The notes beneath the pieces are model-generated. The model searched no databases, was not told where the DNA came from, and was given only the letters and a program-made list of their open reading frames with translations. The position numbers were made by a program, and so were the translations under genes. A stretch of DNA of 32,000 nucleotides from Promethearchaeum syntrophicum (lineage in GTDB: Archaea; Asgardarchaeota; Lokiarchaeia; Sigyniarchaeales; Promethearchaeaceae). Where the stretch lies: positions 90,001-122,000 of the forward strand of contig NZ_CP042905.2 of assembly GCF_008000775.2 (NCBI RefSeq). The letters run 5' to 3'. Positions 504-19,430 of this stretch are shown here, in pieces; positions within the stretch are counted from its first letter, which is position 1, and each line of letters begins with the position of its first letter.

Positions 504-797
504 TTATGGTGTATATTCGTGATTGCTGTTTCCTTGAACGAAATTAGTTCCATATTCAGAAATAAATATACTATTTACTGAAAAAAAGTTGCCACCGTTT
601 TCATATTTAGATCCCAAGTGCCCGACCATTAGATAATGGAGCATTGCGTTTACAATGAAAACGCCTGAGAGTATCCTATGTGTCTCAATGTCATAAAGTT
701 CCAAGTTGGATTCATAAGCGTTTTCGTAATAGTACCAGTATCCTTGTGTGTCGGCAACAAATAAGTTGGGGTGAGATGTTAGAATATTGACAGACAT
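504..797 (-). CDS. Hypothetical protein (97 aa from ATG 797; the track starts at GTG 800)
   Basis: Track ORF with non-repetitive composition and no recognisable motif. Its first codons overlap the left end of repeat copy 1. Confidence 0.4.
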   Translation of the reverse strand: MSVNILTSHPNLFVADTQGYWYYYENAYESNLELYDIETHRILSGVFIVNAMLHYLMVGHLGSKYENGGNFFSVNSIFISEYGTNFVQGNSNHEYTP

Positions 798-916
798 CAC
801 ATGAACAGAAACAGATTTGAAGAAATTGTAGGTTTGATATAGATAGGGGTAGTAGAAAGATATTGAAGTAATGTTGGTACGGTTTGTAGAGCAAGGCTTT
901 GTCGTGGGCTTTTAAC
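787..916 (+). repeat. Copy 1 of an unclassified ~130-bp G/T-rich dispersed repeat
   Basis: Aligns by eye with 15912..16042, 18199..18325 and 19298..19426. All four share the invariant core GTAATGTTGGTACGGTTT and end in GTCGTGGGC plus a T-run. Confidence 0.9.
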
Positions 917-1004
917 TTCTTTATTTAATTTAAATATTTATATTGTTAATTTGAGTAATATTTGTTAAATTTTAATTACAGTCTTTTTTCTCTCTACATT
1001 TAAT

Positions 1005-1030
1005 TTTTACTTTCAGTGACCTAAGGTAAA
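1005..1030. repeat. Right arm of the 26-bp inverted repeat (partner 416..441)
   Basis: See 416..441. It lies 110-135 nt upstream of the LRR gene start at 1140, while its partner lies 130-155 nt upstream of the divergent LRR gene start at 286. Confidence 0.8.
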
Positions 1031-1139
1031 TCTTTTTGATCGCCAAATTTTTTAGCAATAAATCGCCGATTCGTTAAATTTAATTACTCAAACTTTATAT
1101 AATATACGGAGACAAAAATTAGTAAATGGGATTCAAGGA

Positions 1140-2519
1140 ATGAAAAAACGCACTAAAAAATCTTCTGTAAAAACAACTAGACATCAAAGAAATCCCGTAA
1201 AATACCCAGGTATAGTAATAAAAAATGGACATTTGACGATTCTCCCCGAGAATATCAAAAATCTGAAATTTCTCGAAATTATGAATTTAAGTAATAAACG
1301 GTTAACATCACTCCCAGAAAATATCGGAGATCTAAGATCTCTAAAAAATTTAGATTTATCAGATAATCAGTTAACAAAACTCCCGGAAAGCATCGGAAAT
1401 CTAACATCTCTAAAAATTTTAGATTTATCAGATAACCAGATAACAAAACTCCCGGAAAGCATCGGAAATCTAACATCTCTAAAAATTTTAGATTTATCAG
1501 ATAACCAGATAACAAAACTCCCAGAAAGCATTGGAAATTTGAAATCACTTGAAAAGTTGAATTTACGAGGTTTTCAGATACCGACACTTCCGTATGAGAT
1601 TGAAAATCTGAAAATATCCGAAATGATAAATTTAAGACACAAATGGTTAATATCGCTCCCAGAAAGCATCGGAAATCTAACATCTCTAAAAAATTTAGAT
1701 TTATCTTATAATCAATTAACCAAACTCCCAGAAAGCATCGGAAACCTGAAATCACTTGAAAAGTTGAATTTATATGCTAATCGAATAAAAACACTACCGG
1801 AAAGTATTGGAAATCTATCTTCTCTAAGAGATTTAAATTTATCACTCTTATTTTTTAATTCACTACCGAAAAGCTTAGGAAATTTGAAATTACTCGAAAA
1901 TTTGGAATTATCATCTAATGTATTACCTTTTCTTCCAGAGGAGATCGGAAATCTAACATCTTTACAAAGTTTAGATTTAACATCTAATCAGTTAACAACC
2001 CTCCCAGAGAGTTTCGGTAATCTAACATCATTACAAAATTTAAATTTAATATTTAATCATATAATATCTCTCCCGGAAAGTATTGGAAATCTTAATTCGC
2101 TCCAAAATATGAATTTAGGGGTAAATAAGTTGACTTCTCTCCCGGAAAGTATTGGAAATCTGAAATCACTTAAAAAATTGGAATTAGCAGAAAATAGGTT
2201 GACTTCTCTCCCAGAAAGTATTGGAAATCTTGGATCTCTAACCTATCTTGGATTATCACAAAATCAACTCACTTCACTCCCAGAAAGCATTGGAAATCTA
2301 ACATCTCTAGATTATATTGTATTATCACAGAATCAACTGACTTTACTCCCGGAAAGCATTGGCAATCTAACATCTCTAAATTATTTTGAATTATCCCAAA
2401 ATCAACTAACTTCACTCCCAGAAAGCATTGGCAATCTAACATCTCTAAAAATTTTGGATTTAAACAATAATCAGTTAAATTTTCTTCCTGAAAGTATAGT
2501 TAAATTTGAAGCGCTCTAA
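1140..2519 (+). CDS. Leucine-rich repeat protein (about 18 repeats of 23 residues, LPESIGNLxSLxxLxLSxNQLTx); ends at an in-frame TAA and continues in 2520..2912
   Basis: The translation is almost entirely LPESIGNLTSLKxLDLSxNQ(L/I)TxLPESIGNL units. A TATA-like TTTATATAATA lies about 40 nt upstream of the ATG. Confidence 0.9.
   Translation: MKKRTKKSSVKTTRHQRNPVKYPGIVIKNGHLTILPENIKNLKFLEIMNLSNKRLTSLPENIGDLRSLKNLDLSDNQLTKLPESIGNLTSLKILDLSDNQITKLPESIGNLTSLKILDLSDNQITKLPESIGNLKSLEKLNLRGFQIPTLPYEIENLKISEMINLRHKWLISLPESIGNLTSLKNLDLSYNQLTKLPESIGNLKSLEKLNLYANRIKTLPESIGNLSSLRDLNLSLLFFNSLPKSLGNLKLLENLELSSNVLPFLPEEIGNLTSLQSLDLTSNQLTTLPESFGNLTSLQNLNLIFNHIISLPESIGNLNSLQNMNLGVNKLTSLPESIGNLKSLKKLELAENRLTSLPESIGNLGSLTYLGLSQNQLTSLPESIGNLTSLDYIVLSQNQLTLLPESIGNLTSLNYFELSQNQLTSLPESIGNLTSLKILDLNNNQLNFLPESIVKFEAL
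1377..1514 (+). repeat. Perfect 2 x 69-bp tandem duplication inside the LRR gene (one LRR unit duplicated)
   Basis: AAACTCCCGGAAAGCATCGGAAATCTAACATCTCTAAAAATTTTAGATTTATCAGATAACCAGATAACA occurs twice back to back (1377..1445 and 1446..1514). The next unit diverges. Confidence 0.9.
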
Positions 2520-2597
2520 TATTTATATTTATCAAAAAATCAGATAACTTCTCTACCGAATAGATTCAATAATCTAAGAATACTCAAAAAACTTAGT

Positions 2598-2912
2598 TTG
2601 GAAGAAAATCCAATAGAAACATTATCAAACATATCCATAGATGCTTTGAAATATATTAAAATTTCCGCAGGGTGTTTAACGAAGAAAGGAGGATATTTAT
2701 ATCAACACAGTATATTTGGGAAATTAGCTGAATATTATAAAAAAACTTGTAAATCACTAGCACTACAATATATTTCAGACCCAAAATCTCTTACAGAAGA
2801 TGAACTGGAGAGATTAATTCATGAATCAGGCAGATATGAAGAAATACTTTTTGAAAGTCGATTATCTCTTGAAGATCCGATATTCGTAAAAATAAGGAAA
2901 CGGATTTTTTGA
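2598..2912 (+). CDS. C-terminal remainder of the LRR protein (same frame as 1140..2519; non-LRR tail)
   Basis: 2520..2597 is open in the same frame and still encodes an LRR unit (YLYLSKNQITSLPNRFNNLRILKKLSLEENPIETL). The track start at 2598 is a TTG inside that unit. Confidence 0.6.
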   Translation: MEENPIETLSNISIDALKYIKISAGCLTKKGGYLYQHSIFGKLAEYYKKTCKSLALQYISDPKSLTEDELERLIHESGRYEEILFESRLSLEDPIFVKIRKRIF

Positions 2913-3200
2913 GAACTTTCCTGTGGATTGAAGATATGCTTTTAATTTTTTATATCAAATGTCATTTTATTTTTAACCTACTAAGTGGTTAGTTGGTTTA
3001 AAATAACTTATAATAATAACAAAATTCCTTCCTTAGAGATCAGTTTTTGAATTAGTGAAAAATAGTAGTTAGTTAAATTCTATAAAAAATCTAATAAAAA
3101 TATTTGAAATATGTATAGCCCCCAACTGAAAATTTAACTTCAACAAGAGAAAAAAATATCATCTGTCTTTTTAAGTGAGAAAAAATAAAAATTCATTGTA

Positions 3201-3734
3201 ATGGGATCGTACTGTCCAATTTGCGACAAAAATTTCAAACGTGATGGATATGCCAAAAGTGTTTCGCATATAGAAAGTCAGGCACATCAAACGGCACTCC
3301 TAAAAAGTAGAAGAACTGGAAAAAGTGAAAATACGCAAATAATATCTCAAAGCTCGACAAAACCTTTTCAGAAAAACAAGATTGCACTTTTTGGGAAAAC
3401 TCAAGATTCTACGAATTTAGAAAAGCGAGTTAAAGAATTGGAAAAACAAGTGGAATTTTTGCTAACAAAATATAGGATTATTGTTAAGAAACTTTCAAAA
3501 AATAATCAGTATGTCAATATGGATAAGCTTAAAGCAAAAATCTACAAAATTATCTCCAATAAAAGGCATATAACCTCTGATCAGCTTCTAGAAAACCGAC
3601 ATCTCAATAATTATTCATTTGAATCAATTGAAGAAGCAGTGCTTGAATTATCAGCTGATGCTATTATTGATTTAGGTGAAGGACCGTCAAAACGCAAATT
3701 CAAAAATCAATATGGTTTAATGGTTCTCCGATGA
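3201..3734 (+). CDS. C2H2 zinc-finger protein with coiled-coil middle and possible winged-helix C-terminus
   Basis: N-terminus CPICDKNFKRDGYAKSVSHIESQAH has the spacing C-x2-C-x14-H-x5-H. The segment LEKRVKELEKQVEFLL looks like coiled coil. The gene ends 45 nt before the next co-directional gene. Confidence 0.6.
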   Translation: MGSYCPICDKNFKRDGYAKSVSHIESQAHQTALLKSRRTGKSENTQIISQSSTKPFQKNKIALFGKTQDSTNLEKRVKELEKQVEFLLTKYRIIVKKLSKNNQYVNMDKLKAKIYKIISNKRHITSDQLLENRHLNNYSFESIEEAVLELSADAIIDLGEGPSKRKFKNQYGLMVLR

Positions 3735-3778
3735 TCCCTTGATCTTACTAAATCTTGTGTAAATGGTGTGTTATATAA

Positions 3779-6328
3779 ATGATTCGTGTATTAAACAATA
3801 ATAAATATAGAGAAGCACTTAGATATTTTAGAAAATTTACACAAAGCCCTTTTATAAGCAGTTCCTATTACGATGGGTATAAATTTGAAGATTTTGTTGG
3901 TCGTGGAGAGGAACTGGATCTTTTCAAGCAAAGAATTTTTGAAATTGTCGATAAAGGAACCAGTTATGCCATTAGATTAAATGGATTTGGTGGAGTTGGA
4001 AAATCGACTCTATTTAACTATCTTAAAAAACGAATAGAAGATGAAAGAGCGAATAATCCCAAAATTTGCGAGTTTCTGGGGCCATCTCATAACATTTTTT
4101 CTCTTTATTTTAAAGATATCGGAAAAATCTCCGATTTTGGGGATATTTTCCGAAAAATTCAAAATGCTTTCGCTCCTCATTTTGATGCAGAATTAGGTCA
4201 TGAAATTTCATTTGTTGAATATGTAGCCTATTGCATGGTGTTTGCTTTAGTAAAAAAGTATCCTGAAAAAATAGTTCATCGTATTTTTGGGAAAAAAAGA
4301 ACAGTTTTCAATCCGTCTACTATAAAATTACCTGATTTAATAGAAAAAATAAAAAATTTAGAAGAAAAATACATTTTGGAGATATCTGAAATTGTAAACG
4401 AGAATGTTAAAGAAATTATTAATGATTTTAAATATCAAACTAATTCCAAATCTTATAAAATAAACAGAAGAGATTTACCTTTATTACGAGGTCTTAGTCA
4501 AATATTTTCATATAATAATGATTATTATGATAAAGTGATGAGGTGTGATCCTTCCCTCTTTCGCTCAGACAATGAAATAATTGATTATTTTAATTCATTA
4601 TTAAGACTTTACAGTTGTTTCACACAACGTCAACCTATTCTTTTAATAGGAATGGATGAATTTGCCAAGTCACCTGAGATAGAAAAAAGAATTTATTATA
4701 AATCATTAGCAAAACTATTAGTAAAACTCCGGAATAGCTTGGATTACACGCTTTTTGTCTTTATCTCAACAAAAAAAGATTGGAACTCATTTGATCAAGA
4801 ATTACTAGAAGATACAGACCTACTAAGCCAAATTTCTGCATATATGGAAGAAATATCTCTAGTTTCCTTAGAAACTGATGAATTAATTAAAGTTTTTGAA
4901 AAAAGAATGGACCTCTACTGGAAAAAAGGTAGACATAATCGGCCAATAAAATATCCATCGTATCCCTTTTCAAAGGAGTTATTCCGATATGTTTATTTTC
5001 TACATGAACGTGATATGCGGGAATCAATAAAATTTTTAGATAGATTATGGCGAAAATTACAAAGATCTCCAGATATACCTGATTTCCATAATCTTTATGA
5101 TGTTCTTAGATTTGCACGTAGCTCTAAATTCTCCGGACTTGAACTTTCGAAGATCGAGGCGTTTGAACTTAAACTTGTAGGAGATTTTTTTAGTAAATCA
5201 CAAATTTATGCTAATAATAAAAAAAGATCTTCCATCGTGGAGGAAGGTTTAACCCAAGCATTTTTATCACTTAAAACTAAAACTTTTTTTGATGAATTAA
5301 GTTTTGTTCATAATAATTACACTTTTTATATTCAATCTAAAGATGGAACGCAACATAGAAGACTACCTGATGTCCTTTTGACCTTTAATGAAGATATGGG
5401 ACCATCTATGAAACGTTATGTTGAAATTCAAGTAAAGGTATATACTCCTGAAAAACATGTAGAGTTGGATCATATTGAGTCTTCAATAGATTTACTTTCC
5501 AACGGTTGTACGGATGCAGTTCTATTTTTAATGACTGGAGCAGGTTTTAGTCATAAAGCAAAAGAAGCGATTGAGGAACACTTAAAGATTTTTCCAAACA
5601 GAATCAAAATATTTATTGTGTCAACAGAGAGGATAAATGTATTATATTTTCTAGCTTTATTTAATGAAATATATGGAAAGAACTTTCAAGATTATGAAAA
5701 CGGTTCTGAAATTGCTTTATTTCTGCTTGAAAAAATTTTTAGATGTGATATTTCTGATTTATTTCAAGAATTATTGGCACTCCCTCCTTGGGAAATACCG
5801 GTTGATTCTGATCATAAAACAGAGAACTATCGTCCTCCACCCACATTAGCAGAATCACCACCTATTATTCCAAAAATAAGAAAATCTCCAGAATCTTTAC
5901 AGAAAACACCAGTTCAGATTAATTCTTATTTTAGTTCAAATTCTGCTTCTGGTTCAAATCTTAGTCAAGAAGTCACTGATGAGGAAAAAAATGAAATTGA
6001 TACCCAATCTCCTGAAGAAGCTAAATTATCAGAATTTCCGTTCCATTGGCAGAAATTACCTCTTCTTGATTATGTTGACTATCAAGGTGAGCTTATAGCT
6101 CTAGTGGATTATGCTTGGAACCGTCGTCCTAGTTCTCTTTATAAATTTACGAAAACTACCTTTCGAAAAAACTTCTTGAACGATAATGCAGCACTAGGTG
6201 TGAATGAATTTAATGAACTAGTTGATAGGATGATGAGAACAGGTTATTTAAAAAAGGAAAAAACTACATATATCTTTACTCCCGAGGGAAAATTGTTTGT
6301 TCGAGATATAGTAGCAAATCTAGGTTGA
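3779..6328 (+). CDS. Large P-loop NTPase (AAA+/STAND-like) fused to an Mrr-like PD-(D/E)xK nuclease domain, a low-complexity linker and a C-terminal wHTH
   Basis: FVGRGEEL...GFGGVGKSTLF is the Walker A region and ILLIGMDEF the Walker B. HERDMRESIKFLDRLW resembles the Orc/Cdc6 sensor-2 region. RLPDVLL...YVEIQVKVY...AVLFLMTGAGFSHKAKEAIEE fits the Mrr catalytic pattern (D ... Q/ExK ... TTG.F...A). A P/S/E-rich linker follows, then YLKKEKTTYIFTPEGKLFV, a wHTH-like tail. Confidence 0.7.
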   Translation: MIRVLNNNKYREALRYFRKFTQSPFISSSYYDGYKFEDFVGRGEELDLFKQRIFEIVDKGTSYAIRLNGFGGVGKSTLFNYLKKRIEDERANNPKICEFLGPSHNIFSLYFKDIGKISDFGDIFRKIQNAFAPHFDAELGHEISFVEYVAYCMVFALVKKYPEKIVHRIFGKKRTVFNPSTIKLPDLIEKIKNLEEKYILEISEIVNENVKEIINDFKYQTNSKSYKINRRDLPLLRGLSQIFSYNNDYYDKVMRCDPSLFRSDNEIIDYFNSLLRLYSCFTQRQPILLIGMDEFAKSPEIEKRIYYKSLAKLLVKLRNSLDYTLFVFISTKKDWNSFDQELLEDTDLLSQISAYMEEISLVSLETDELIKVFEKRMDLYWKKGRHNRPIKYPSYPFSKELFRYVYFLHERDMRESIKFLDRLWRKLQRSPDIPDFHNLYDVLRFARSSKFSGLELSKIEAFELKLVGDFFSKSQIYANNKKRSSIVEEGLTQAFLSLKTKTFFDELSFVHNNYTFYIQSKDGTQHRRLPDVLLTFNEDMGPSMKRYVEIQVKVYTPEKHVELDHIESSIDLLSNGCTDAVLFLMTGAGFSHKAKEAIEEHLKIFPNRIKIFIVSTERINVLYFLALFNEIYGKNFQDYENGSEIALFLLEKIFRCDISDLFQELLALPPWEIPVDSDHKTENYRPPPTLAESPPIIPKIRKSPESLQKTPVQINSYFSSNSASGSNLSQEVTDEEKNEIDTQSPEEAKLSEFPFHWQKLPLLDYVDYQGELIALVDYAWNRRPSSLYKFTKTTFRKNFLNDNAALGVNEFNELVDRMMRTGYLKKEKTTYIFTPEGKLFVRDIVANLG

Positions 6329-6926
6329 TTATTCACCAACTTTGATATAATAATAGGGATAGATTCGTTGATCTGGATTAGAATTATATTTATCATTTTC
6401 AGGAGTCACTTTTGTTCACACATAAAAAACCCGTATATTCTTTTCACATTTCCAGTAAATATCAGGATATGAGCATAATTCGAGTTTCATGATTAACTGA
6501 TGCAAATTGTTCAATTAAAATTAATTATTAAAATATGAAATTGAAAACAAAGAAATCATGAAATCTCAGCTTCGACAAAAATTTAAATTTCCCCTACTTT
6601 CAAATCGAAGCTATTAAATAATCTAACAAAAGCACTTCATTACTTAAATGAATTCAATCCTCTCCATGAGATCAGAATTCTCTCTTTTTTGTCGTAATAT
6701 ATAAATATCCTTTGAGAGACTTTTTTCAATAATTATTTTTATTGGAATCTCAAAAAAATATTTAATTAATTCAGTTTTTACCTAAATTCTAAAAAATTAT
6801 TAACCAAAAGCTAGCAAGCAATTCGCAAAATTTAAATGCTTAAAAATGATATTCAAAATAATTTTGTAAGAAAAATATAAAAAAAGATATTTTATACAAG
6901 AAAGCAGTTATGAGGAGATAAAAATA

Positions 6927-9143
6927 GTGCAAAAAACTCTAATACCATTAAATGTTTCAAATGAACCTTTGAATTTCTACATCAGCCAAGTAAAAAAACC
7001 TTCAATTAGACCCAGACAAATTTTCAAAGCAGATGAAAAGAAAAAAATTAATAAAATCTCTCAAAAAATTATTCAAAGCTGTAAAACTTCTCCTCTCTCA
7101 AATCTAAGAATGCAAACAAACCGTGTAACTTGGATTAAAAAAATTTTTAAAATATATCCAAAATTAAAAATACCTGAAATTAATTATCTCTTAAATGATT
7201 TTTCTCAACCCATGTTTACAGCAATGAGAAAAAAAGACAGGTATAATATACTAATTTCTAAAAAGAATTGGGTAATATTATGTCATACTCTTCAAGGAGA
7301 AAAAACGATAACACCTAATATAAAAACTGTTGATAGATTAATGGATGTTGACAATATTAGAAAGGTTATTGCATTTGAAAATGCAAAAAGTGGAATTATT
7401 GTTCATTATGTAGAGGATTTTCCAACCAAATTTATCACTGATTATTTAGGTTTATCAGATTCAAAAACATTTTCCTATCTTGGTGGGAAAAACCGTATAG
7501 TGACCAATGTCCATGGAATCTCGATTTCTTTTAATTTTACTGATGAAAAATTTATTGACTTCCTACAAGAAGAAGAAATTTTTTCTTTTAAAAACAATAA
7601 GTTATGTTTTAAAAATCCAATAACCCAATTCCCGATTACTAATATATGGGTAGGGAAAAAACATTTTTCCAAATTCAACAATTTCTATCAAGATTTTAAA
7701 ACTAGAAACTTAGAATTACAGTTTTATATTTCAGAGTATAAAAAAATTTCAAGAATGTTAGAATTACCCAATTACCCAATATATGACGATAAGGATTGTA
7801 TATTAAGAAATGATAAAAAATTATTAGAAAAATCAAATTCTGACTTCGACATTATATTTTGTAATCAAAAAATATTATTAAGAGCCAGTTATTGTGAATT
7901 TATTGTTGAAAAGATCGATAATCACGAAAAAATCAAATTATTCCATGCTGGAACAAAACTCTCAATTGAACCATTAAAAATTGGCACAATTGAAATATAT
8001 AACTCATTTAGAACAACAAAATCACTGGAATTAATCCAAATCTTTAATAAGGGTTTTACTTCAGATTCATTTGAATTGATTCTTTTTGCAATTTTTACTC
8101 TAATGGCACATGAAAATTATAGGAGACCAATCAGTTATTTATTTATAGATTTGGCAAAAAATTTAATCCAAAAAGAAAATTTTCAAAAAAATTTCTCAAA
8201 AATATTTGATTTCGAAACTCCGTATCCAAAATTGAGTAAGATTTATAGAGAAATGTTACAATTAGATATAGGTTCTAATATTCGAGATTTATTTCCTAAA
8301 ATAGAAATTAATGAAAATCTTGAATTTATTGACCAAGATGATTATAATTATTTAAAGAATAAGTTTAAAGGATGTATAAGAAAAGCTCAAATAAATAAAT
8401 GGTTAAATAATTTCCAATTAGAAGAAATTCCTTATATGTTAAAACTTCTAAAACAATTTACTATAATTAACAATCAGGAATTAAAGGAAAGACTTGAAAA
8501 AATACATAAAAAAATGTTAGAAACTTGTAGTGGTTCTTTAAAAGATACAATTTTCTTCAATTTTGGAGAAGAAGGTAAAAGTGCTAATCTAATTCAATAT
8601 CATTATAGTAAATCGAATTCTATTCCTAATTCAATAAATTTTATTGACATTACAAAAATTACGGATTTTGATATTTATGATGGTAAAAACTTCTTCTATG
8701 TGGATGATATTTTAGGTTCGGGTGATCAGTTTATAAAAAATTGGAATAAATTTGAAAATAAACTCAAATCTTCAACAGAAAAACAAGAATTTGAGAAATT
8801 TCTATTAAAAAACTCATTTTATTATTCATCAATAATTATTCAAGAAGAAGCTAAAAAGAAAATTGAAGAAGATACGCCTTTTAAAACAATTATAACTAAA
8901 GAAAATTTATTAAAAAAGCAAGATATCCCCTTTGAAAATCTCGATGGACTATTTTCTAAAGAAGAAGTGTCAGAAATTTTAAATATAAGCACAAAGTATG
9001 GAAAGAAATTAAATAAAACTGCTCCTTTGGGATATGGTAACTTAAAATTATTAATTGCTTTTGAACATAATTTTCCAAATAACACACTTCCTATATTTTG
9101 GATGAAGAATTCTTATTGGAAACCATTAATAGAACGAAATTAA
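6927..9143 (+). CDS. Large uncharacterised protein with a phosphoribosyltransferase (PRTase)-like C-terminal region
   Basis: GTG start 8 nt after GGAGA. FFYVDDILGSGDQF (nt 8691..8729) resembles the PRPP-binding loop VDD(I/V)xxTGxT. The tail is PLGYGNLKLLIAFEHNFPNNTLPIFW...WKPLIERN. I recognise nothing in the N-terminal ~500 aa. Confidence 0.45.
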   Translation: MQKTLIPLNVSNEPLNFYISQVKKPSIRPRQIFKADEKKKINKISQKIIQSCKTSPLSNLRMQTNRVTWIKKIFKIYPKLKIPEINYLLNDFSQPMFTAMRKKDRYNILISKKNWVILCHTLQGEKTITPNIKTVDRLMDVDNIRKVIAFENAKSGIIVHYVEDFPTKFITDYLGLSDSKTFSYLGGKNRIVTNVHGISISFNFTDEKFIDFLQEEEIFSFKNNKLCFKNPITQFPITNIWVGKKHFSKFNNFYQDFKTRNLELQFYISEYKKISRMLELPNYPIYDDKDCILRNDKKLLEKSNSDFDIIFCNQKILLRASYCEFIVEKIDNHEKIKLFHAGTKLSIEPLKIGTIEIYNSFRTTKSLELIQIFNKGFTSDSFELILFAIFTLMAHENYRRPISYLFIDLAKNLIQKENFQKNFSKIFDFETPYPKLSKIYREMLQLDIGSNIRDLFPKIEINENLEFIDQDDYNYLKNKFKGCIRKAQINKWLNNFQLEEIPYMLKLLKQFTIINNQELKERLEKIHKKMLETCSGSLKDTIFFNFGEEGKSANLIQYHYSKSNSIPNSINFIDITKITDFDIYDGKNFFYVDDILGSGDQFIKNWNKFENKLKSSTEKQEFEKFLLKNSFYYSSIIIQEEAKKKIEEDTPFKTIITKENLLKKQDIPFENLDGLFSKEEVSEILNISTKYGKKLNKTAPLGYGNLKLLIAFEHNFPNNTLPIFWMKNSYWKPLIERN

Positions 9144-10678: not shown

Positions 10679-12208
10679 CTATGGTTTAAGTTTTTTTTTA
10701 TGGTTTTTCTTAGGTTTCTTTTTTGATCTCTTTTTCTTCTTCTTCTGTTTATTATATGATTTTTTCTTTGATCTTTTTACTTTTATATCTTGAAGAATGT
10801 ATTTTATATGATCAATGATAGCATTTAGTTTAAGAATCTCCTGATCCGAGAATTTAGAAGATGATTTAGGATCATTTAGTAATAGAATCAATTTACTTAA
10901 AATCAATAGTGTGGACATATCGATCACAGGGAGGTTGAAGGATTTAAGGGCTTTAATTTGGTGAAATTTATAACCTTCACTGCCTGTAGATTGACGATAA
11001 TGCCCGAATGTAAAACGGTCTTGATCAAAACGTGCAGAGTTTATACTTTTATGCTTATATCTTTGGTTAATTTGGCTGTTAAGGAGGTTTAATCTAAATT
11101 GAACTCCATCATATTTCAAAAAAATAATTAATGGAGATTTATTTTCTTTTACCAAATCATGTAATTTTTTTGTCGGAAACATCTTATTGGATAAGTTATT
11201 TGATTTTAAGACTAATTGTCCTATTGGTAATGGTCCAAGAAGAAGTAATTTCTCAATGATTATATTCCGATTTTTCTGGTTTATTTTTGTATTTGATGCT
11301 AATAGATTCAATAATTCAACTTCTATTTCCGCAAAGTCTATCATTGTTTTATCGATTTGGGAAAGTTTTATATAATTTGTGGGTAATTTAGTTGCCAACT
11401 TTGGTATCCCATTAGTTTGGACAAATTCAAAAAATTCATTAAATCTAGAAAATTCAATCCTTTCTAATTGATACTGTATAATTTTATTTTTATAATTGTT
11501 TGTGAATTGTTTTTTATTGGATCCGACTATTCCTTTAGCTGGTAAAGAAAGAATTTGCTTTAATCTATTCAATCTTACATAGGTTTTCCTAATAGGATTG
11601 TATTGAGATTGTAGGCGATGTTTCATCTCAAGCATTTCAATATGATCAGTATATATTAGTAAAAAATCATATTCACTAAGCATAAATCCTGAACGATTCA
11701 CTACAATCTCACCTTTTTTTCCTCGAGTTAATCCTTCTTGAGCGCGAGGTTCCTTTTGAATCTCTTGAGGGCAAGAATAACCTTTACATTCTGGGATCTT
11801 TGTATTAATTTGGCTTAAAATCCAATTTGAATAAGCTTCAAAATAATAACCCCGTAAACTTCCCTTAATAAGTTGTATTGGGATATTTTTTGGTTGGTTT
11901 TTTGTTCTTTGGATTATAATCTTATTATATAATTGAATAGAAGAAAAATCCAAGTTGGCTTCAAATTCATCAATTAACGTTTGAAGAATATTCTCTTTAT
12001 GATTCATATTATTAGTCATTTTATCACCGATTTTGTAGTATTTCATAAAAATATTAAGCCATATCTGACCGTACCCACTAAAATCAAGAGGATTGGCAAT
12101 GGATGATAGAGGGATCCCGTTTAGGATTACCTTATTCCCGTCTACCTCAGACATGTGTTGCTCGGTGATAATGGAAATACAATTCTGAAATATTACTGCA
12201 ATAGACAC
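10679..12208 (-). CDS. Hypothetical protein with a central PD-(D/E)xK (Hjc/NERD-like) nuclease motif and a C-terminal poly-lysine tail
   Basis: GKKGEIVVNRSGFMLSEYDFLLIYTDHIEMLEMKH fits E ... D ... ExK. The C-terminus is KRSKKKSYNKQKKKKKRSKKKPKKNHKKKLKP. Confidence 0.45.
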   Translation of the reverse strand: MSIAVIFQNCISIITEQHMSEVDGNKVILNGIPLSSIANPLDFSGYGQIWLNIFMKYYKIGDKMTNNMNHKENILQTLIDEFEANLDFSSIQLYNKIIIQRTKNQPKNIPIQLIKGSLRGYYFEAYSNWILSQINTKIPECKGYSCPQEIQKEPRAQEGLTRGKKGEIVVNRSGFMLSEYDFLLIYTDHIEMLEMKHRLQSQYNPIRKTYVRLNRLKQILSLPAKGIVGSNKKQFTNNYKNKIIQYQLERIEFSRFNEFFEFVQTNGIPKLATKLPTNYIKLSQIDKTMIDFAEIEVELLNLLASNTKINQKNRNIIIEKLLLLGPLPIGQLVLKSNNLSNKMFPTKKLHDLVKENKSPLIIFLKYDGVQFRLNLLNSQINQRYKHKSINSARFDQDRFTFGHYRQSTGSEGYKFHQIKALKSFNLPVIDMSTLLILSKLILLLNDPKSSSKFSDQEILKLNAIIDHIKYILQDIKVKRSKKKSYNKQKKKKKRSKKKPKKNHKKKLKP

Positions 12209-12382
12209 AATTCAATTATTTAAGTTTTTGTAATATTATAAGCAAAAATGATTTGAGGTTTCAAAAACGGAGAATTTAATTTACATTTAGAAGCAATCGA
12301 AGAAAGGGAAAGAATATAATTTTTTTTACTAATTCGTCGATCTATATAGAGTTATAAGGGAGAAACGAATAGAATAAAATAT

Positions 12383-12901
12383 ATGCTTGATCGCAAATTA
12401 TATAGGATTATAATTGACACGTTAGGGAAGGCGCATTTTGAGTATTATCCCGACAATTTTTCCAAGCGAATTTTAGTTCAAAAAGTATTATATCTGCTTA
12501 CTCATGGAAAGGCAAATCCAAAATTACATCTAGCTTATAAGTGGAGTTTTTATTTACATGGGCCATATTCTTCCGAAATAGCTCACATGGTATATTATAT
12601 GAATGATTTCTCAGCATCATTGTTAGATGAAACTCAAGATATTCTGGATAAGCAAGAAATCGAAGCAATTAACCATTTTAAGGAATTTGATAAGGAAACT
12701 ACCCCTTTTCTTGATAAACTCTCGAAAGAGGATTTATATGAAATGTTTGCAACAATTACATACATATCTGAGCAAGTTGACTATAATAAAACAAGTATCG
12801 AACAGAAATTTGGAATTTTTAAACCAGAGCTTAGAGAGAAAATTAATATGGAAGATTTTGATGCGATATTAGAAACAATGACAGAGTTCAATTATATATA
12901 A
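12383..12901 (+). CDS. Panacea/SocA-like (DUF4065-like) domain protein
   Basis: RILVQKVLYLLTHG...LAYKWSFYLHGPYSSEIAHMVY resembles the DUF4065 signature (KLxYL ... f.aW.hGPv...vY). It sits directly upstream of the HD hydrolase gene. Confidence 0.4.
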   Translation: MLDRKLYRIIIDTLGKAHFEYYPDNFSKRILVQKVLYLLTHGKANPKLHLAYKWSFYLHGPYSSEIAHMVYYMNDFSASLLDETQDILDKQEIEAINHFKEFDKETTPFLDKLSKEDLYEMFATITYISEQVDYNKTSIEQKFGIFKPELREKINMEDFDAILETMTEFNYI

Positions 12902-12991
12902 AAATGATAATAATTGAAAGAATTTCGAATTAGGAAGAAATACAATACATGTTATTTATTTAAAGTAAGAAAATTCGGTATATTATTAAAA

Positions 12992-14398
12992 ATGAGAACT
13001 TTAACAGGGCTACAAGCAAAAAAGTACATTCTTGATCCAATTCATAAAGTTATTTCATTAACGCAGATAGAACTTGATATAATTTCAACTCCTTTATTTC
13101 AAAGATTGCGAAAAATTACTCAATTGGGTGTAGCATCATTGGTGTATCCTGGTGCAACTCATAACAGATTTCAACACTGTCTTGGTACTTTACATGTTAC
13201 GGATAAACTATTATATTCGCTTGAGCTTCAAAAAGAATACGAATTATCTGATAAAGATCATAAACGAATAGTTCAATTTATGCGCCTTGCAGCGTTACTC
13301 CATGATTGTGGACATTTACCTTTTTCCCATACATTTGAAAATTTATATGAGAATTTTACTCATGAAGATATTGGAAAGCATGTAATAGAAAAAAGTTCGA
13401 TTGGAGAGATATTAATAAAACATGGTTTTAATCCAAACGACTTAGGTTTGTTTATAACAGGGCAACCTCCAGTTAAAGATAAGAATTTCAATATATTAAC
13501 ACACTTGTTACCACTTTTACATTCTGAAGCAGATGCTGATCGAATGGATTATCTTTTACGAGATGCATATTTTACGGGTGTTCCTTATGGGAAAATTGAT
13601 ATCGATAGGATATGCAATTTTGTAACTTTACATGAAAAAAGAATATGTTTTTCAGAAAAAGCCCAAGATGCGCTTGAAGATTTTTTATATTCGAGATATC
13701 AGATGTATAAAATAGTCTATATTCATAAAACATCACTTTGTTATGATTTAATTCTTCATAAAATCTATGAAAATTATTTAAAAAAGTCAAAAATCAAATT
13801 CTTTGACTCTTTCAAACTCCCTACAAAGAAAGAATTTGAAAAAAAGAATAAAGAATGGTATGAAACAGATTTCTACGAGTTATCAGAAGCCTCCTTCTAT
13901 GAAACTATTCAATACCTTTTAAAATCTAAAGGAAAAAGTCTTACCGATACAGAGAAAGTAGAGCTAAAATATTTATATAATACGATTAAGAAGCGAAAAC
14001 CGATTAAAAATTGTTATAATCATGATTTATTAGCAACAGTCCCAGAAGATATTAAGAAAAAAGGGGAAATATGTGAAAAAGAAAATCAACTTTTTGAAAA
14101 TTTACAGAAAAAATCGAAGATTACTAATCATTGGTCATTTCTACGACATGATCCAGGAAAACCCATAAGAATTTCTCCCCCAATTAATCAAATAATTGAT
14201 GATGATCAAGATTCAAAATCAATTCGGATTTTAAAGGATATTAATGGTAAAAAGGAAATTGTTTTACTCCAAAAAAAACAGAATTCTTTCATCAAAAATT
14301 TAGCCACTCATCATAGGGTTCTTATCAGTTATTATCATAATGACAAAAAAGCCCAAGAAGAAATTCAAAAACAAGCATGCGAAATGTTTGGGTCATAA
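12992..14398 (+). CDS. SAMHD1-type HD-domain phosphohydrolase (COG1078-like, putative dNTP triphosphohydrolase)
   Basis: HNRFQHCLGTLHV (H..H), AALLHDCGHLPFSH (HD) and HSEADADRMDYLLRD (D) are the family motifs. The track ORF starts at TTG 12914. ATG 12992 (MRTLTGLQAKKYILDPIH) looks the likelier start. Confidence 0.85.
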   Translation: MRTLTGLQAKKYILDPIHKVISLTQIELDIISTPLFQRLRKITQLGVASLVYPGATHNRFQHCLGTLHVTDKLLYSLELQKEYELSDKDHKRIVQFMRLAALLHDCGHLPFSHTFENLYENFTHEDIGKHVIEKSSIGEILIKHGFNPNDLGLFITGQPPVKDKNFNILTHLLPLLHSEADADRMDYLLRDAYFTGVPYGKIDIDRICNFVTLHEKRICFSEKAQDALEDFLYSRYQMYKIVYIHKTSLCYDLILHKIYENYLKKSKIKFFDSFKLPTKKEFEKKNKEWYETDFYELSEASFYETIQYLLKSKGKSLTDTEKVELKYLYNTIKKRKPIKNCYNHDLLATVPEDIKKKGEICEKENQLFENLQKKSKITNHWSFLRHDPGKPIRISPPINQIIDDDQDSKSIRILKDINGKKEIVLLQKKQNSFIKNLATHHRVLISYYHNDKKAQEEIQKQACEMFGS

Positions 14399-14452
14399 AA
14401 TTAAATGTGTAATCAAAAATCCTTTAAAAAAGCAAATTACATGTTTAACACT

Positions 14453-15577
14453 TTAATACTCCTTATGACTCATTTTTTTCAGATTTTCTTTCCAAAGCGG
14501 TTTTTCTTTCTTGATAAAGTATCCTATATCCACCATAACCAGAAGGATTAGAATACAAATAATGCTCCAGAGAAGGATATTAGATATTTCTTCTTTTGGA
14601 CTCAAAGGATCGATAATCACTAAACCATCATGAAAATCTAATATGTATACATATGACCCCGAAACAAAAACTCCAACTACATGTCCATCATCATAGAATT
14701 GTCCCACTTTCACCGGAGCGACTGGGTCTGAAATGTCAATAACCTCTAAACCTCTAAGACGCTCCGCCACGTATGCATATGACCCCGAAACATAAACTTC
14801 TACCGCACATCCACCATCATCGAATTGTCCCACTTTTGCAGGTGCGGTCGGGTCTGAAATATCAATAATCTTTAAACCATCGCAACTACCACCCACCACG
14901 TACGCATATGACCCCGAAACAAAAACATCCTCCGCAAGTCTACCATCATTAAATTGTCCCACTTCCACTGGAGTAGTCGGGTCTGAAATGTCAATAATCC
15001 TTAAACCACCGGAACCTTCCACTACGTACAAATATGAACCTGAAACATAATATTCTAATAAACAACCCCATTCAGATGTGCAATAAGTAAATAGACCTAC
15101 TTTTATGGGAGCTGCTGGGTCTGAAATATCAATAATCTCTAATCCATCATCACTATCTTCCACGTATGCATAGGACTCCGAAACAAAAACATCGACCGCA
15201 TATCCACCATCATCCAATTGTCCCACTTTAGTGGGGGTGGTCGGGTCTGAAATATCAATAATCCTTAACCCATGCCCACCATCTGCCACATAAGCATACG
15301 ATCCCGAAACAAATACTTCGTATGCCGTTCCAGCATCATCGAATTGTCCCACTTGTGTGGGGGCGATCGGGTTTGAAATGTCAAAAATCTTTAACCCATC
15401 ATCACCAGCTGCTACGTATAAATATTCCCCCGATATATAAATATCATCTTCATTTTCAATATTATCGAATTTTACGATAATGCTAAAATTATGACTAAGA
15501 AGCATACTTGCTCCGATAATAAGTGCAACTAACCCCGCGAATATTACAGCCAATAACTGATTTTTCTTGAACTTCAT
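14453..15577 (-). CDS. LVIVD-repeat beta-propeller surface protein with N-terminal signal/TM and C-terminal TM anchor
   Basis: About eight repeats of GSYAYVADGGHGLRIIDISDPTTPxKVGQxDD. It has an N-terminal hydrophobic segment and a C-terminal LLWSIICILILLVMV helix. It is visibly more G+C-rich than its neighbours. Confidence 0.85.
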   Translation of the reverse strand: MKFKKNQLLAVIFAGLVALIIGASMLLSHNFSIIVKFDNIENEDDIYISGEYLYVAAGDDGLKIFDISNPIAPTQVGQFDDAGTAYEVFVSGSYAYVADGGHGLRIIDISDPTTPTKVGQLDDGGYAVDVFVSESYAYVEDSDDGLEIIDISDPAAPIKVGLFTYCTSEWGCLLEYYVSGSYLYVVEGSGGLRIIDISDPTTPVEVGQFNDGRLAEDVFVSGSYAYVVGGSCDGLKIIDISDPTAPAKVGQFDDGGCAVEVYVSGSYAYVAERLRGLEVIDISDPVAPVKVGQFYDDGHVVGVFVSGSYVYILDFHDGLVIIDPLSPKEEISNILLWSIICILILLVMVDIGYFIKKEKPLWKENLKKMSHKEY

Positions 15578-15911
15578 TTATAGATACCTCTTGTTATTAT
15601 GCTCAGAGTGAGAATTGCAGTAGTGATGAATATGAATTTGCAGGTTTTTAGTTTTGTATATATTTTTTAATTTTATCTCCTTTGAATTTTGAATATCACA
15701 TTTTGACATATCAATATTCTATCCATATAGAATGAATATTTAACATTTTTGTTTTTGCAACAACTATAAATTTTCCGAATTCTATGGGAAGATAAGATAT
15801 ATTTAGTGTGATAAATTGTTCGCTAAATTATTTAAAATAAATAAAGAGCAAAAGATCTGAGAGTATGCGGTGGTTAGGATTAAGTGGCTAGGGTAAGGTG
15901 TTAGGATATAA

Positions 15912-16042
15912 AAGATATCACATGAACAGAACAGAAGTGAAGAAATGGTAGGTTTGATATAGGTATAGGGAGGGATAGTAAAATGATATTGAAGTAATGT
16001 TGGTACGGTTTGCAGGGCAAGGCTTTGTCGTAGGCTTTTTCC
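15912..16042 (+). repeat. Copy 2 of the ~130-bp G/T-rich repeat (carries a ~6-nt internal insertion)
   Basis: ATCACATGAACAGAACAGAAGTGAAGAAATGGTAGGTTTGATAT...GTAATGTTGGTACGGTTTGCAGGGCAAGGCTTTGTCGTAGGCTTTTT. About 40 nt upstream also resembles the sequence upstream of copy 1. Confidence 0.9.
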
Positions 16043-16387
16043 TTTTTATTCCCGAATTTTTATTGATTATTATTTTTCAAGTTAAGGGTGTTTTAGAGTC
16101 TGGATATGTAATATACATGGGTCAATTACTCGTATCAGTTTTTCGTATAATATCTGGAGAAGATTGTTATGATCTCCTACCCATATCAACATTAATATTG
16201 TATTTTAAATGGATGATTTAGTAATTTCCTTAGTTTTAAACGTTGCAGAAAGTGCTTCCAAGTCTGAATTTATAACCCATTTCTGTAAAAATAGGCTATT
16301 CCATTTAAAATGCTAGAATTCAAATATAATAATTATACCATTAAATCACCAATTATCAAAAAAAGGCGGAAAAAATCAATTTTCTAA

Positions 16388-17239
16388 TTATGTTCGTTTG
16401 ATTACTGCAATTTTTTTTATTAAGCGTTGTTTTGTTTTTTGTAACGATTTCAACATATCTCGATACATAATATAATCTTCTTCTATTTCTTTAACCTTCC
16501 TTTTGAGTAGTCTAATATTTCTGCTGATATTACTTTTTTCTTTTGTATCTTGAGATAATTTTCTTTCTTCTTCTTTATCATTAATTGTTTCTTTAGTTTC
16601 TGAGATTCTTTTTATGCAATGGTCTTGTTTATCTGGCATTCTCCTACTTAATACATCTATCCTTTCGTTGATATACTCAAGTAATTCTGGGTTTTTTGAT
16701 TTTTTTGTTATAATTCGAAATCCTTTTGGTTCCTCACGAGACGACATTCGTTTAACGATCTCCAAAATTGATTTCGATCTATTCGGTTCTTTTTCTCTCA
16801 TAAATAATTTTCTCTCTAATTTCTTATCTAATCGTTTTTCTCCCTCGTGAAGGAAATTTGTAAGCATCAGGAACGGAGATATAATAATATATATGGGGAT
16901 AAAAAATGGAAATTTTATAGAAGAATTCCACAATTGCAAATAAGGATAAATAAAGATATTAGAATTATCTATTCTCCATTGGCTTATTTTATATTGATAA
17001 GCTTTATGCATGTAATTGTTGTAACATTGAATCGGATAATGAAAAACAAAAGTAAAGAGCTTATACAACAAATATATAAGAATGAATAGGATAATCCCTG
17101 GGAGATAAAACGGCAAGAATAATATAAATTTGACTACAGATAAATGCTTGAAGAATTCTTTTAATTTGGCGAAAATTGGAATGGCTTCATAGCTAGTAAC
17201 TTTTTTTCTTACCCGGTTCTCGGACATAATAATTATCAT
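16388..17239 (-). CDS. Membrane protein with charged coiled-coil C-terminal half (hypothetical)
   Basis: Hydrophobic helices in the N-terminal half and a K/E/R-rich C-terminal half. ATG 17227 (MSENRV) is an alternative start, because TTTTTATAA lies only ~10 nt upstream of 17239. Confidence 0.55.
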   Translation of the reverse strand: MIIIMSENRVRKKVTSYEAIPIFAKLKEFFKHLSVVKFILFLPFYLPGIILFILIYLLYKLFTFVFHYPIQCYNNYMHKAYQYKISQWRIDNSNIFIYPYLQLWNSSIKFPFFIPIYIIISPFLMLTNFLHEGEKRLDKKLERKLFMREKEPNRSKSILEIVKRMSSREEPKGFRIITKKSKNPELLEYINERIDVLSRRMPDKQDHCIKRISETKETINDKEEERKLSQDTKEKSNISRNIRLLKRKVKEIEEDYIMYRDMLKSLQKTKQRLIKKIAVIKRT

Positions 17240-17813
17240 TTAATGGATTATAAAAATTTTTTTGTTGGTTGGAAAAATGGGTTAATAATCATTGGTATGA
17301 TGTTGTTTTTGGAGTTTAAAGCTCCCAGTTCCCCCTCGAAAGTCGCCATCTATGACCGACTTGAGTTGGACAAAGGTTTTTTATCCGAAATTTATAAAAA
17401 TTATGTTTAAAAAACAATTTTCATGAAAAATAAATAAAATCCTTAGTTGTTATCACTTAAATAAGTTAATAATTTTTAATTTACAATAATTGTGCTTTTA
17501 TATTTTATCAAGTTAAACTGAATTTATGCATTATTTCTGATTTTACATTTTTTAAAAACGATTGCATCTTATGAAGCATTTTTTGATTTAACATTTTACA
17601 AGTTCTATATATGAAAAATGAATATCATTATAACTATATTTTTGTCTAATCATAGTGTACGTTCATATGACTATAAATAAAAAAGAAACTGAAGAATTAG
17701 CATCCAAGAATAAGAAATTTACATTAAAAATTAAATTATTCTGGGAAAATTGTCAGAAAAATTGAATTTGGATAAATCTCGGGGCGATAATCGCTAGTAC
17801 ACCTTTCCTATGG

Positions 17814-18170
17814 GTGCTATATTACTTCAACATAATTAGTTTGAGGAATGCAATTATCGGGACTATTGTTCCGCCCTTAGGAATCATCCTTATATATAAT
17901 GTAAAAAACATCAAAAACATAAACATTCTTATCTTAATGAATAAAATTATGTTGGTTGGTTGTGTTGGATATGTTATAACTGTAATTATCTGGCTTCCGA
18001 GTGGTTACATCCTTGTTAATGCTTCTTGGGCACCTTTACATAATGTATTGTCACCAAATTTAGAAGTTACCTTTATACTTCTACTTATGGTTGCAATATA
18101 TGGCATTGTCGCGTATATATTGTATAGATTTGGTAAGAAAAGGGAATGGCATATTTCCCCCTATTACTAA
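17814..18170 (+). CDS. Small multi-pass membrane protein (coding potential extends upstream to an in-frame TGA at 17763)
   Basis: Track ORF with hydrophobic helices. The 48 nt upstream of GTG 17814 encode IWINLGAIIASTPFLW in the same frame. Confidence 0.55.
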   Translation: MLYYFNIISLRNAIIGTIVPPLGIILIYNVKNIKNINILILMNKIMLVGCVGYVITVIIWLPSGYILVNASWAPLHNVLSPNLEVTFILLLMVAIYGIVAYILYRFGKKREWHISPYY

Positions 18171-18198
18171 TTTTTTTTTTGAATAAAATATAAAATTA

Positions 18199-18325
18199 TT
18201 GACAGACAGCACATGAACAGAACTAATTTGAAGGTATTGTAGGTTTGGCATAGATAGGTATAGTAGGAAGATATTGAGTAATGTTGGTACGGTTTGTAGG
18301 GCAGGGTGTTGTCGTGGGTTTTAAA
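18199..18325 (+). repeat. Copy 3 of the ~130-bp G/T-rich repeat
   Basis: Starts 29 nt after the stop of 17814..18170. It has the same core and 3' end, with a 1-nt deletion relative to copies 1 and 4 (TTGA-GTAATG). Confidence 0.9.
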
Positions 18326-18436
18326 TATTTTTACCGATTTTCGAGTATACTTCATAAAATGGAATTTAATGCTGAATGATATTTTTTATATCTAATAATC
18401 GTTAAATTTTTTAAAAAGAATGATATAAATTATATC

Positions 18437-18769
18437 ATGAGTCAAATAAATTTCCGCATTAATAATGAGGATATGAAAGTCGCCAAGATGATATCAGAGA
18501 GTACGGGGATATCACTGGCAGAAATTGCAAGAAGGGCATTTCTTAAAAAATTACGACCTGAGAGAGTGGAAATTGCCTTTAATTTATTGAAAGAAGGAAA
18601 ATGCGGATTCAAAAAAGCTTGGAAGATTTCAGGTTTGGGATATAATGAATTTCTATCAGAATGGATAAAAAAAGACGCAAAAGAAGTAATCCCGGAAGAA
18701 ATGATCGAAGCGCATTTAAAATGGGCTTTAGATTATGATATAAAGAAATTAATGAAGAATTCCGAATAG
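18437..18769 (+). CDS. Putative antitoxin (RHH-like N-terminus plus UPF0175-like helix-turn-helix)
   Basis: MSQINFRINNEDMKVAKMISESTGISLAEIARRAF is RHH-like. LLKEGKCGFKKAWKISGLGYNEFLSEW is UPF0175-like. The gene lies 28 nt upstream of a PIN gene. Confidence 0.6.
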   Translation: MSQINFRINNEDMKVAKMISESTGISLAEIARRAFLKKLRPERVEIAFNLLKEGKCGFKKAWKISGLGYNEFLSEWIKKDAKEVIPEEMIEAHLKWALDYDIKKLMKNSE

Positions 18770-18797
18770 ATTGACCAAATTCATTTGAAGGATTATC

Positions 18798-19289
18798 ATG
18801 TTGCTCTCTTTTGACACTTGCTCTTTTTTACGTATACAGCATATCTTTAATACAATTGATATTGACTTACGTTCAATCTTAAAAGAATTTAGACTTGTTA
18901 TTACCGAGGAATTGCGTAAAGAATATTTAAATTATAAACTAGAAAAATTTTTCGCATTCAATTATATCTTTATACCACTCTCTGCAGAAGAACGGAAAAC
19001 CTATATTTCAAAGTATTTGTTAGAATCTTTCGATTCTGCTGACCAAGATCTAATTATTGTTGGTCTTAGAGACAAATTAACAATTGTTACTGATGATAGG
19101 GATCTTTTCAATCAATGCTCTATATTAAATATTCCAACATTTCAGTTATGGTCATTTTGTATAAGCTTGGTTAAGGATGGACAGTTATCTAAAAATCAAA
19201 TCCATAAATGCTGGAAATTATGGGAAGAAGAGAAAAGATATTCAAAAACAACATTAAAGTTGATAAAAAAAACTCTTGGTTTATTATAA
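18798..19289 (+). CDS. PIN-domain toxin (DUF3368-like)
   Basis: Acidic residues sit in the PIN pattern: LLSFDTCSF, ITEELRKE, DQDLIIVGL and IVTDDRDL. Confidence 0.75.
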   Translation: MLLSFDTCSFLRIQHIFNTIDIDLRSILKEFRLVITEELRKEYLNYKLEKFFAFNYIFIPLSAEERKTYISKYLLESFDSADQDLIIVGLRDKLTIVTDDRDLFNQCSILNIPTFQLWSFCISLVKDGQLSKNQIHKCWKLWEEEKRYSKTTLKLIKKTLGLL

Positions 19290-19297
19290 ACAACAAA

Positions 19298-19426
19298 ATG
19301 ACAACATCACATGAAGTGAAACAGAATGGAAGAAATTGTAGGTTTGATATAGGTAGGGGTAATAGAAAGATATTGAAGTAATGTTGGTACGGTTTACAGG
19401 GTAGGGCTTTGTAGTGGGTTTTTAAC
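19298..19426 (+). repeat. Copy 4 of the ~130-bp G/T-rich repeat
   Basis: Starts 9 nt after the PIN gene stop. Its 3' end lies about 5 nt from the start of the racemase-fragment homology. Confidence 0.9.
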
Positions 19427-19430
19427 TTTT

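Follow-up and report, generated by a model that had tools for sequence, protein, structure and literature searches.

Orphan copies of the 23S rRNA 3' trailer bound gene segments in Promethearchaeum syntrophicum and may mark an insertion hot spot

The stretch of DNA analysed here, the window, comprises 32,000 nucleotides (nt) of the genome of Promethearchaeum syntrophicum MK-D1 (NCBI RefSeq assembly GCF_008000775.2, contig NZ_CP042905.2, positions 90,001 to 122,000 of the forward strand). It has a G+C content of about 29% and encodes archaeal markers (a PAN ATPase and a PUA/TGT_C2 protein) as well as LRR and LVIVD proteins. The subject of this work is a repeat that occurs in it four times, with gene segments between the copies, and that is homologous to the 3' trailer of the archaeal large-subunit (LSU) rRNA unit; copies that stand without a 23S gene are called orphans in the following. 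A previous reading of the letters of the window alone (the sequence-only reading) had described four same-orientation copies, and this holds: the repeat is real, all four copies lie on the + strand, and a profile hidden Markov model built from them and searched against both strands of the window returned exactly these four copies and no fragments. The places given for the copies were right as well, but the copies are longer than had been stated, as judged by homology with rRNA-linked sequence, which also sets the approximate extents given here.

764 to 927, + strand: orphan copy 1, 5'-truncated, aligned to rRNA-linked trailers (nhmmer E=2e-55)
15854 to 16062, + strand: orphan copy 2, the longest copy, extent from the alignment (nhmmer E=2e-50)
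18196 to 18345, + strand: orphan copy 3, 5'-truncated at TTATTGACAG (nhmmer E=3e-45)
19300 to 19430, + strand: orphan copy 4, 5'-truncated at GACAACATCACATG (nhmmer E=1e-42)
868 to 885, 15994 to 16011, 18278 to 18295 and 19378 to 19395, + strand: invariant 18-nt core, exact matches

The core GTAATGTTGGTACGGTTT, which had been claimed to be invariant, indeed has exactly four matches in the window, even with up to three mismatches allowed, versus 0.03 expected by chance, and none of 100 shuffles reached four. The identity between the copies had been put at 80-90%, which is too high: the measured pairwise values are 74-85%, with a mean column identity of 78% in a MAFFT alignment. All four copies extend to a common 3' end, as had also been proposed, and differ in their 5' ends. 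However, the motif at the 3' end varies among three forms (GTCGTGGG in copies 1 and 3, GTCGTAGG in copy 2 and GTAGTGGG in copy 4). Oligo-T runs (T4-T6) are present at this end in every copy.

Copy 1 lies between two divergent LRR genes and starts with AGTTGGGGTGAG; in the alignment of the full unit, its start is AGTTGGGG. Copy 2 starts with GATCTGAGAGTATGCGGTGG, the 5' end of the full unit, as does the copy on L004, a contig of a Promethearchaeum relative. It contains a 6-nt insertion and is located between the LVIVD gene and the open reading frame (ORF) 16388-17239, both on the - strand. Copies 3 and 4 follow + strand genes, starting about 26 nt past the stop codon of a membrane-protein ORF (17814-18170) and 11 nt past that of ORF 18798-19289, respectively; the stop positions 18170 and 19289 had been given correctly before. 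Copy 4 is followed by a racemase pseudogene fragment and then by the 3' end of a Fic gene. The annotated ORF DSAG12_00606 (504-797, - strand) has no Pfam match and its first ~12 codons are the antisense of copy 1, so that it is a doubtful gene call.

Neither strand of the copies folds better on its own than dinucleotide shuffles do (minimum free energy z -0.9 to +1.5), in agreement with the earlier view that a strong hairpin cannot form. For this reason a hairpin RNA, an attC site and an intrinsic-terminator stem were rejected. A coding repeat was rejected as well, since indels disrupt every reading frame between the copies. With the covariance models of Rfam 15, the window had no match at the gathering score, and copy 1 had none at E<=10 either. 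A tRNA scan of the window and of the relatives' loci was negative, and attachment (att) sites made of tRNA fragments were rejected on this ground.

The minus strand of the repeat is G-poor and open in all frames, and its conceptual translation was searched against a protein collection. This search led to a spurious ORF, P0001, on the ENA contig L078, which is antisense to the 3' end of an archaeal LSU rRNA gene detected there by Rfam; further contigs of relatives were found through spurious ORFs related to P0001. Altogether, a homologue of the repeat is located downstream of 23S on the same strand in seven of the relatives' contigs. In L078, L079, L080, L081, L082 and L086 it lies 72-77 nt past the Rfam LSU 3' end on the rRNA strand, and the contig of L083 ends 9 nt past the 23S end, running directly into trailer sequence. 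Rfam at E<=1 detects only the LSU rRNA on L078 and has no match on the trailer itself. The trailer unit is about 215 nt long, begins about 60-75 nt past the mature 23S 3' end and extends in the alignment from GATCTGAGAGTATGCGGTGG to GGGCTTTTAACTTTT..(C)CGATTTTT, that is, to two or three oligo-T runs. Six linked trailers reach these oligo-T terminators, and that of L081 is cut by the contig end.

By this homology, the four repeats are shown to be orphan paralogues, lacking a 23S gene, of the 3' trailer of the LSU rRNA unit of Promethearchaeum-type Lokiarchaeia, and the claim that the element matches no described RNA does not stand. The window copies are orphan paralogues and not a functional trailer, because no 23S gene is contiguous with them: Rfam detects no rRNA in the window, and nothing that precedes a window copy is related to 23S or the proximal stem. 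Exact-core scans of 185,579 GTDB species genomes, of the JGI metagenomes and of IMG/VR gave chance-level counts, the sole genuine match being L004, a contig of a Promethearchaeum metagenome-assembled genome (MAG) with one full trailer copy and two fragments. Such scans under-count, because the core varies among the relatives.

Archaeal rRNA spacers contain conserved helices and processing stems that are cut at bulge-helix-bulge motifs, and the 16S and 23S genes of MK-D1 are unlinked (PMC8997704 and its supplement). In this setting, the repeat is best modelled as the G/U-rich 3' strand of a leader-trailer helix of about 350 nt, which it forms with an A/C/U-rich 5' leader and which contains many G-U pairs. 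This accounts for the scarcity of C and for the missing self-structure, since the repeat is just one strand of a long helix. When 450 nt of 5' leader and 300 nt of trailer were cofolded, energies of -203.6 kcal/mol for L080 and -196.6 kcal/mol for L082 were obtained, versus -158.6 (sd 5.0) and -156.3 (sd 6.3) kcal/mol, respectively, with shuffled trailers, so that the linked trailers cofold about 40-45 kcal/mol better. In this prediction, the helices between leader and trailer form a colinear, nested series into which all conserved blocks of the repeat fall. The partner of the 18-nt core is the leader sequence ATGCAAATTGTACCAACATT, located about 330 nt 5' of 23S (alignment columns 50-64 with 637-651). 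RNAalifold recovered the same helices on three leader-plus-trailer pairs, and it also yielded a trailer-internal hairpin with one compensatory change. Since only three full pairs with nearly invariant leaders enter the covariation analysis, in which two double-sided changes were seen, the support for the helix model comes from energy and colinearity and hardly from covariation.

The model also concerns the linked units in their own right. In it, the unlinked 23S genes of Promethearchaeum-type genomes are bracketed by an unusually long system of at least five nested helices, which extend to a distance of about 350 nt from the mature ends; its parts lie at 779-1065 and 4192-4640 in L080, at 366-646 and 3773-4220 in L082 and at 9680-9961 and 13088-13540 in L086. 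No description of such a long 23S leader-trailer helix was found in the literature searched.

The orphans form a lineage separate from the linked trailers. Those of the window are 75-82% identical to the linked trailers of type B (L080, L083) and 67-73% identical to those of type A (L078, L079, L082). One diagnostic column holds G in all nine orphan copies and fragments, which come from four genomes, and A in all six linked trailers (TACGGTTTG versus TAYGATTTG), and two further columns also separate the two groups. In L086, the orphan is type B-like and the genome's own linked trailer is of type A. Between MK-D1 and the genome of L004/L084, the identity at four-fold degenerate sites is only 40-58%, yet the window orphans are 77-85% identical to the L004 orphan. 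Because the orphans are more alike than four-fold sites, they are not old neutral scars of a resident trailer. One of three things would then apply to them: they were recently imported or duplicated, they travel together with the segments, or constraint acts on them.

The contigs of the relatives are short and fragmentary and do not represent whole genomes. On them, the 1.8 kb 5' of 23S are 81-99% identical among L080, L081, L082 and L086. In contrast, the downstream flanks of six linked and five orphan copies are mutually unrelated, except for 53 nt common to L083 and L086, and synteny among the relatives breaks at the trailer 3' end. The closest relative is L083 (amino acid identities of 91.5% for Fic and 86.9% for the racemase), which is syntenic with positions 19578-23649 of the window. 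There, 23S and its full trailer are followed in turn by a 122-aa ORF, an LRR gene, Fic, an internally deleted mini-trailer and the racemase. The distance from 23S to Fic is about 1.8 kb in L083, whereas in MK-D1 at least 19.4 kb and four orphans precede Fic. In L078, 30 nt starting about 100 nt past the linked trailer match the Fic 3' end of the window (19572-19601). L086 carries a linked trailer, 7.6 kb of unknown genes and then an orphan 3' fragment as a direct repeat. The parts that L004 has in common with the window are only the membrane-protein gene and the flanking trailer copies, and in L004, too, the homologous gene is followed by trailer copies. In L084 and L085, Fic is present without a trailer.

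Direct trailer repeats thus flank inserted DNA between copies 1 to 4 of the window, between the L086 pair 7.6 kb apart and between the L083 trailer and its mini-copy. The orientation is direct in all seven possible comparisons (three in the window, two in L004 and one each in L083 and L086), for which the chance probability is about 0.008. Within the limits of the fragmentary contigs, the presence/absence differences of L083, L078, L004 and L086 relative to the window are bounded by the repeats.

Two smaller observations belong to the same loci. The 53-nt flank that follows the linked trailer at 7920-7975 in L083 and at 9625-9680 in L086 stands next to a type B trailer in the former and a type A trailer in the latter, a mosaic that suggests recombination inside the trailer. 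In the L083 mini-trailer (4990-5106, - strand), a part of the 23S-proximal stem region is joined to the distal end at GGTGG/TACGG; no trailer remnant is present between Fic and the racemase in MK-D1.

Taken together, these observations suggest that the 23S tail serves as a docking or recombination site for acquired DNA. We consider it probable on balance that the repeats are recombination joints, either att-like sites or portable stretches of homology, of an insertion hot spot downstream of the unlinked 23S. The trailer 3' end would be the edge of a hypervariable region, in which segments with trailer-like sequence are gained, lost and shuffled through recombination within the trailer. A possible route is Campbell-type integration of circular DNA, either by a putative site-specific recombinase or by homologous recombination on the core. 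Every event would leave a direct-repeat trailer copy at the joint, and because of this the copies would have a common 3' end and varied 5' truncations, point in one direction and bound cargo of defence, toxin-antitoxin-like and membrane-protein genes. As a by-product, an rRNA terminator at each joint may insulate neighbouring segments. The sequence-only reading had already offered recombination scars or boundaries as one interpretation, which fits the synteny breaks at the repeat ends, the direct repeats and the defence-type and toxin-antitoxin-like cargo; taken as a whole, that reading is partly supported.

Several points weigh against recombination at the trailer. With 74-85% identity, the copies are a poor substrate for homologous recombination outside of a core of 18-28 nt. 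Only two of the four copies follow a same-strand gene. Neither a recombinase or integrase nor a transposase or viral hallmark was found among the window ORFs with Pfam, PADLOC and PHROGs, which bears out the earlier statement that the window lacks an integrase or transposase, and Pfam detected none of these among the ORFs of the 7.6-kb L086 segment either. Plain neutral scars should have decayed more than the orphans did, and the reading therefore requires recent import, mobility or selection. Moreover, the location of the orphan array downstream of 23S in MK-D1 is inferred from the relatives only.

The idea of recombination joints can be carried further. The orphans might be the cassette-borne partner sites of an as yet undescribed archaeal gene-capture platform with the trailer of the single, unlinked 23S gene as its fixed attI-like site, where a self-propagating trailer-mimic lineage, recognisable by the substitutions common to at least four genomes, travels with defence and toxin cassettes from one Promethearchaeum genome to another; once transcribed, the mimics might also titrate the 23S leader. 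We regard this extension as tentative and rather unlikely. If it were true, such a platform would be an integron-like system built on one strand of an rRNA processing helix.

Two other explanations do not exclude recombination at the trailer. The orphans might be terminator or insulator modules kept by selection, whose T-runs, derived from a very strongly transcribed unit, stop read-through between cassettes, with recombination explaining their origin only. In line with this, the 3' end with the T-runs is kept in eight of the nine orphan copies and fragments whatever the 5' truncation, copies 3 and 4 and both L004 fragments begin about 10-50 nt past same-strand stop codons, and the orphans are conserved above four-fold sites. 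However, a short T-run suffices for an archaeal terminator, yet conservation extends over the 130-200 nt before it. Relative to the neighbouring genes, copies 1 and 2 are in antisense or upstream position, and the orphan-specific substitutions common across genomes would be left unexplained. Selection for terminators is doubtful as the principal cause, and from the earlier suggestion of a small-RNA or terminator module the terminator part stands at the level of sequence only, in the oligo-T runs that end the 23S unit. It is also conceivable, if quite unlikely, that the orphans are trans-acting pseudo-trailer RNAs, each transcribed on its own, that bind the 23S precursor at its leader in place of the genuine trailer and so modulate rRNA processing or circularisation. 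The pairing was scored against the leader of a relative (L080); 84-92% of the helix positions of the window orphans are pair-compatible with it (92% in copy 1), matching the 87-91% of heterologous genuine trailers. The orphan cores reach ungapped pairing scores of 37-44 with a heterologous 450-nt leader, and the window offers no partner in cis: a G-U-tolerant diagonal scan of its 32 kb on the same strand gave best scores of 31-40 versus shuffled maxima of 39-45, and nhmmer found no leader-like sequence in it. Furthermore, conservation exceeds the neutral level and is slightly higher in paired than in unpaired orphan columns (0.915 vs 0.850). Nevertheless, the compatibility is about that given by chance at 75-82% identity, the orphan-specific A-to-G change replaces an A-U pair by the weaker G-U, and the fragmentary copies in L004, L086 and L083 resemble decay rather than genes.

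The remaining two explanations fit the data poorly. If the orphans were relics of extra 23S genes whose bodies were deleted and whose trailers were left, one could refer to the L083 mini-copy, which retains part of the 23S-proximal stem region, and to the two rRNA sets of a related lokiarchaeon (PMC8813620). However, Rfam finds no 23S remnant 5' of any orphan, the 5' boundaries lie at differing points inside the trailer, the orphan substitutions are absent from linked trailers and the DNA between the copies is unrelated cargo, so that we think such an origin very improbable. Just as little can be said for a mobile repeat resembling short interspersed elements (SINEs) or miniature inverted-repeat transposable elements (MITEs), which would have arisen from released trailer RNA or DNA and spread by retroposition or transposition. 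A common 3' end with variable 5' truncation does resemble retroposed copies, and the orphans do form a lineage apart from the linked trailers. On the other hand, the copies all have one orientation and are clustered beside the 23S region. They lack terminal inverted repeats, inverted repeats in their interior and an A-tail, the joints show no visible target-site duplications, and neither a reverse transcriptase nor a transposase is encoded nearby. Moreover, the repeat was found in a single Promethearchaeum MAG among 185,579 species genomes and in none of the metagenome and viral collections.

The proposed recombination joints share features with several known systems. Like the archaeal rRNA 3' external transcribed spacer with the LSU processing stem (the spacer helices of Kjems & Garrett 1990; PMC8997704), the repeat follows 23S, is complementary to the leader and has an oligo-T end in the relatives. 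The window copies differ from this spacer, since they are detached from 23S and leader, are four in number and variously 5'-truncated, and carry substitutions of their own; in addition, the helix modelled here is unusually long, reaching about 350 nt beyond the canonical proximal stem. The homing of Tn7 elements and CRISPR-associated transposons to glmS, tRNA genes or ffs is similar in that insertion occurs just past the 3' end of a conserved gene, the gene stays intact and stacking is possible, but Tn7-like ends, TnsABC/D genes and short target-site duplications are absent here. Integrons were reportedly also described in archaea, by Ghaly et al. in 2022. Integron arrays (attI plus attC) likewise have same-orientation, site-like repeats between short cassettes and one fixed platform. 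In the present case, however, there is neither an attC-type imperfect palindrome nor an IntI, and the segments measure 1 to 15 kb with genes on both strands. In att islands at the 3' ends of tRNA and tmRNA genes, including the tRNA-targeting Asgard aloposons and HeimV/HeimM (PMC8813620), direct repeats of the 3' part of a stable-RNA unit also bound the islands. Tandem accretion arrays, defence or toxin cargo and a conserved side away from the array are further features in common. Here, by contrast, insertions would target non-coding trailer sequence of 23S, the repeats measure 130-210 nt with only 74-85% identity, and no integrase was found adjoining the copies.

MK-D1 is the reference cultured Asgard archaeon, and the places and ways in which it acquires defence and other accessory genes are of importance for gene flow at the boundary between archaea and eukaryotes. 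The Asgard mobile elements known to date use tRNA genes for docking; a hot spot at the 23S trailer, with a trailer copy at every joint, would be a different target class. The trailer profile could also serve as a simple marker for variable regions in Lokiarchaeial genomes and MAGs, and the long leader-trailer helix around the unlinked 23S is relevant to archaeal rRNA processing and circularisation.

The copies of the window delimit the following segments; the decayed gene behind copy 4 is listed with them.

928 to 15853: segment 1, between copies 1 and 2 (genes assigned with Pfam, PADLOC and PHROGs)
16063 to 18195: segment 2, ORF 16388-17239 (- strand) and membrane-protein ORF 17814-18170 (+ strand)
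18346 to 19299: segment 3, a two-gene pair of ORF 18437-18769 (weak DUF6290 match, antitoxin-like) and ORF 18798-19289
19426 to 19586, - strand: decayed fragment of an Asp/Glu racemase paralogue (aa 108-161, with stops and a frameshift)

Segment 1 contains genes for LRR, AAA_16/Mrr-like, PRTase-CE (PADLOC PRTase_III-A), DarG-like, HD/dGTPase-like and LVIVD proteins besides several unknowns. Positions 6927-14398 form a candidate defence cluster with PRTase-CE (E=3e-48), a DarG-like C-terminal domain (E=4e-7), the HD/dGTPase-like protein and the AAA_16/Mrr-like ATPase; several large ORFs beside it (395 and 509 aa) gave no family match. In segment 2, the membrane-protein ORF 17814-18170 encodes 118 aa from a GTG start and has a homologue of 173 aa in L004 (1932-2453, - strand), so that the MK-D1 gene may be N-terminally truncated or its start miscalled. 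In segment 3, no family match was obtained for ORF 18798-19289.

Copy 1 stands between the arms of a 47-nt inverted repeat whose core measures 27 nt (416-462 and 984-1030, extending to about 290 and about 1140, respectively). MITE or transposon ends around copy 1 were considered and rejected, since this inverted repeat is the duplicated 5' region of the divergent LRR paralogues; the left one of these runs off the window start (<1-290, minus strand). On the other side of the array, the racemase fragment directly adjoins copy 4 at its 3' end and extends over the end of the Fic ORF, and it is absent from the equivalent places in L083 and L078. Between Fic and the racemase gene lie two tandem 57-nt units (20468-20524 and 20532-20588) that are 91% identical. 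Each carries a CCCTTACA...TGTAAGGG inverted repeat. The units are also kept in L083 (about 5160-5270) and could be a regulatory or small-RNA element.

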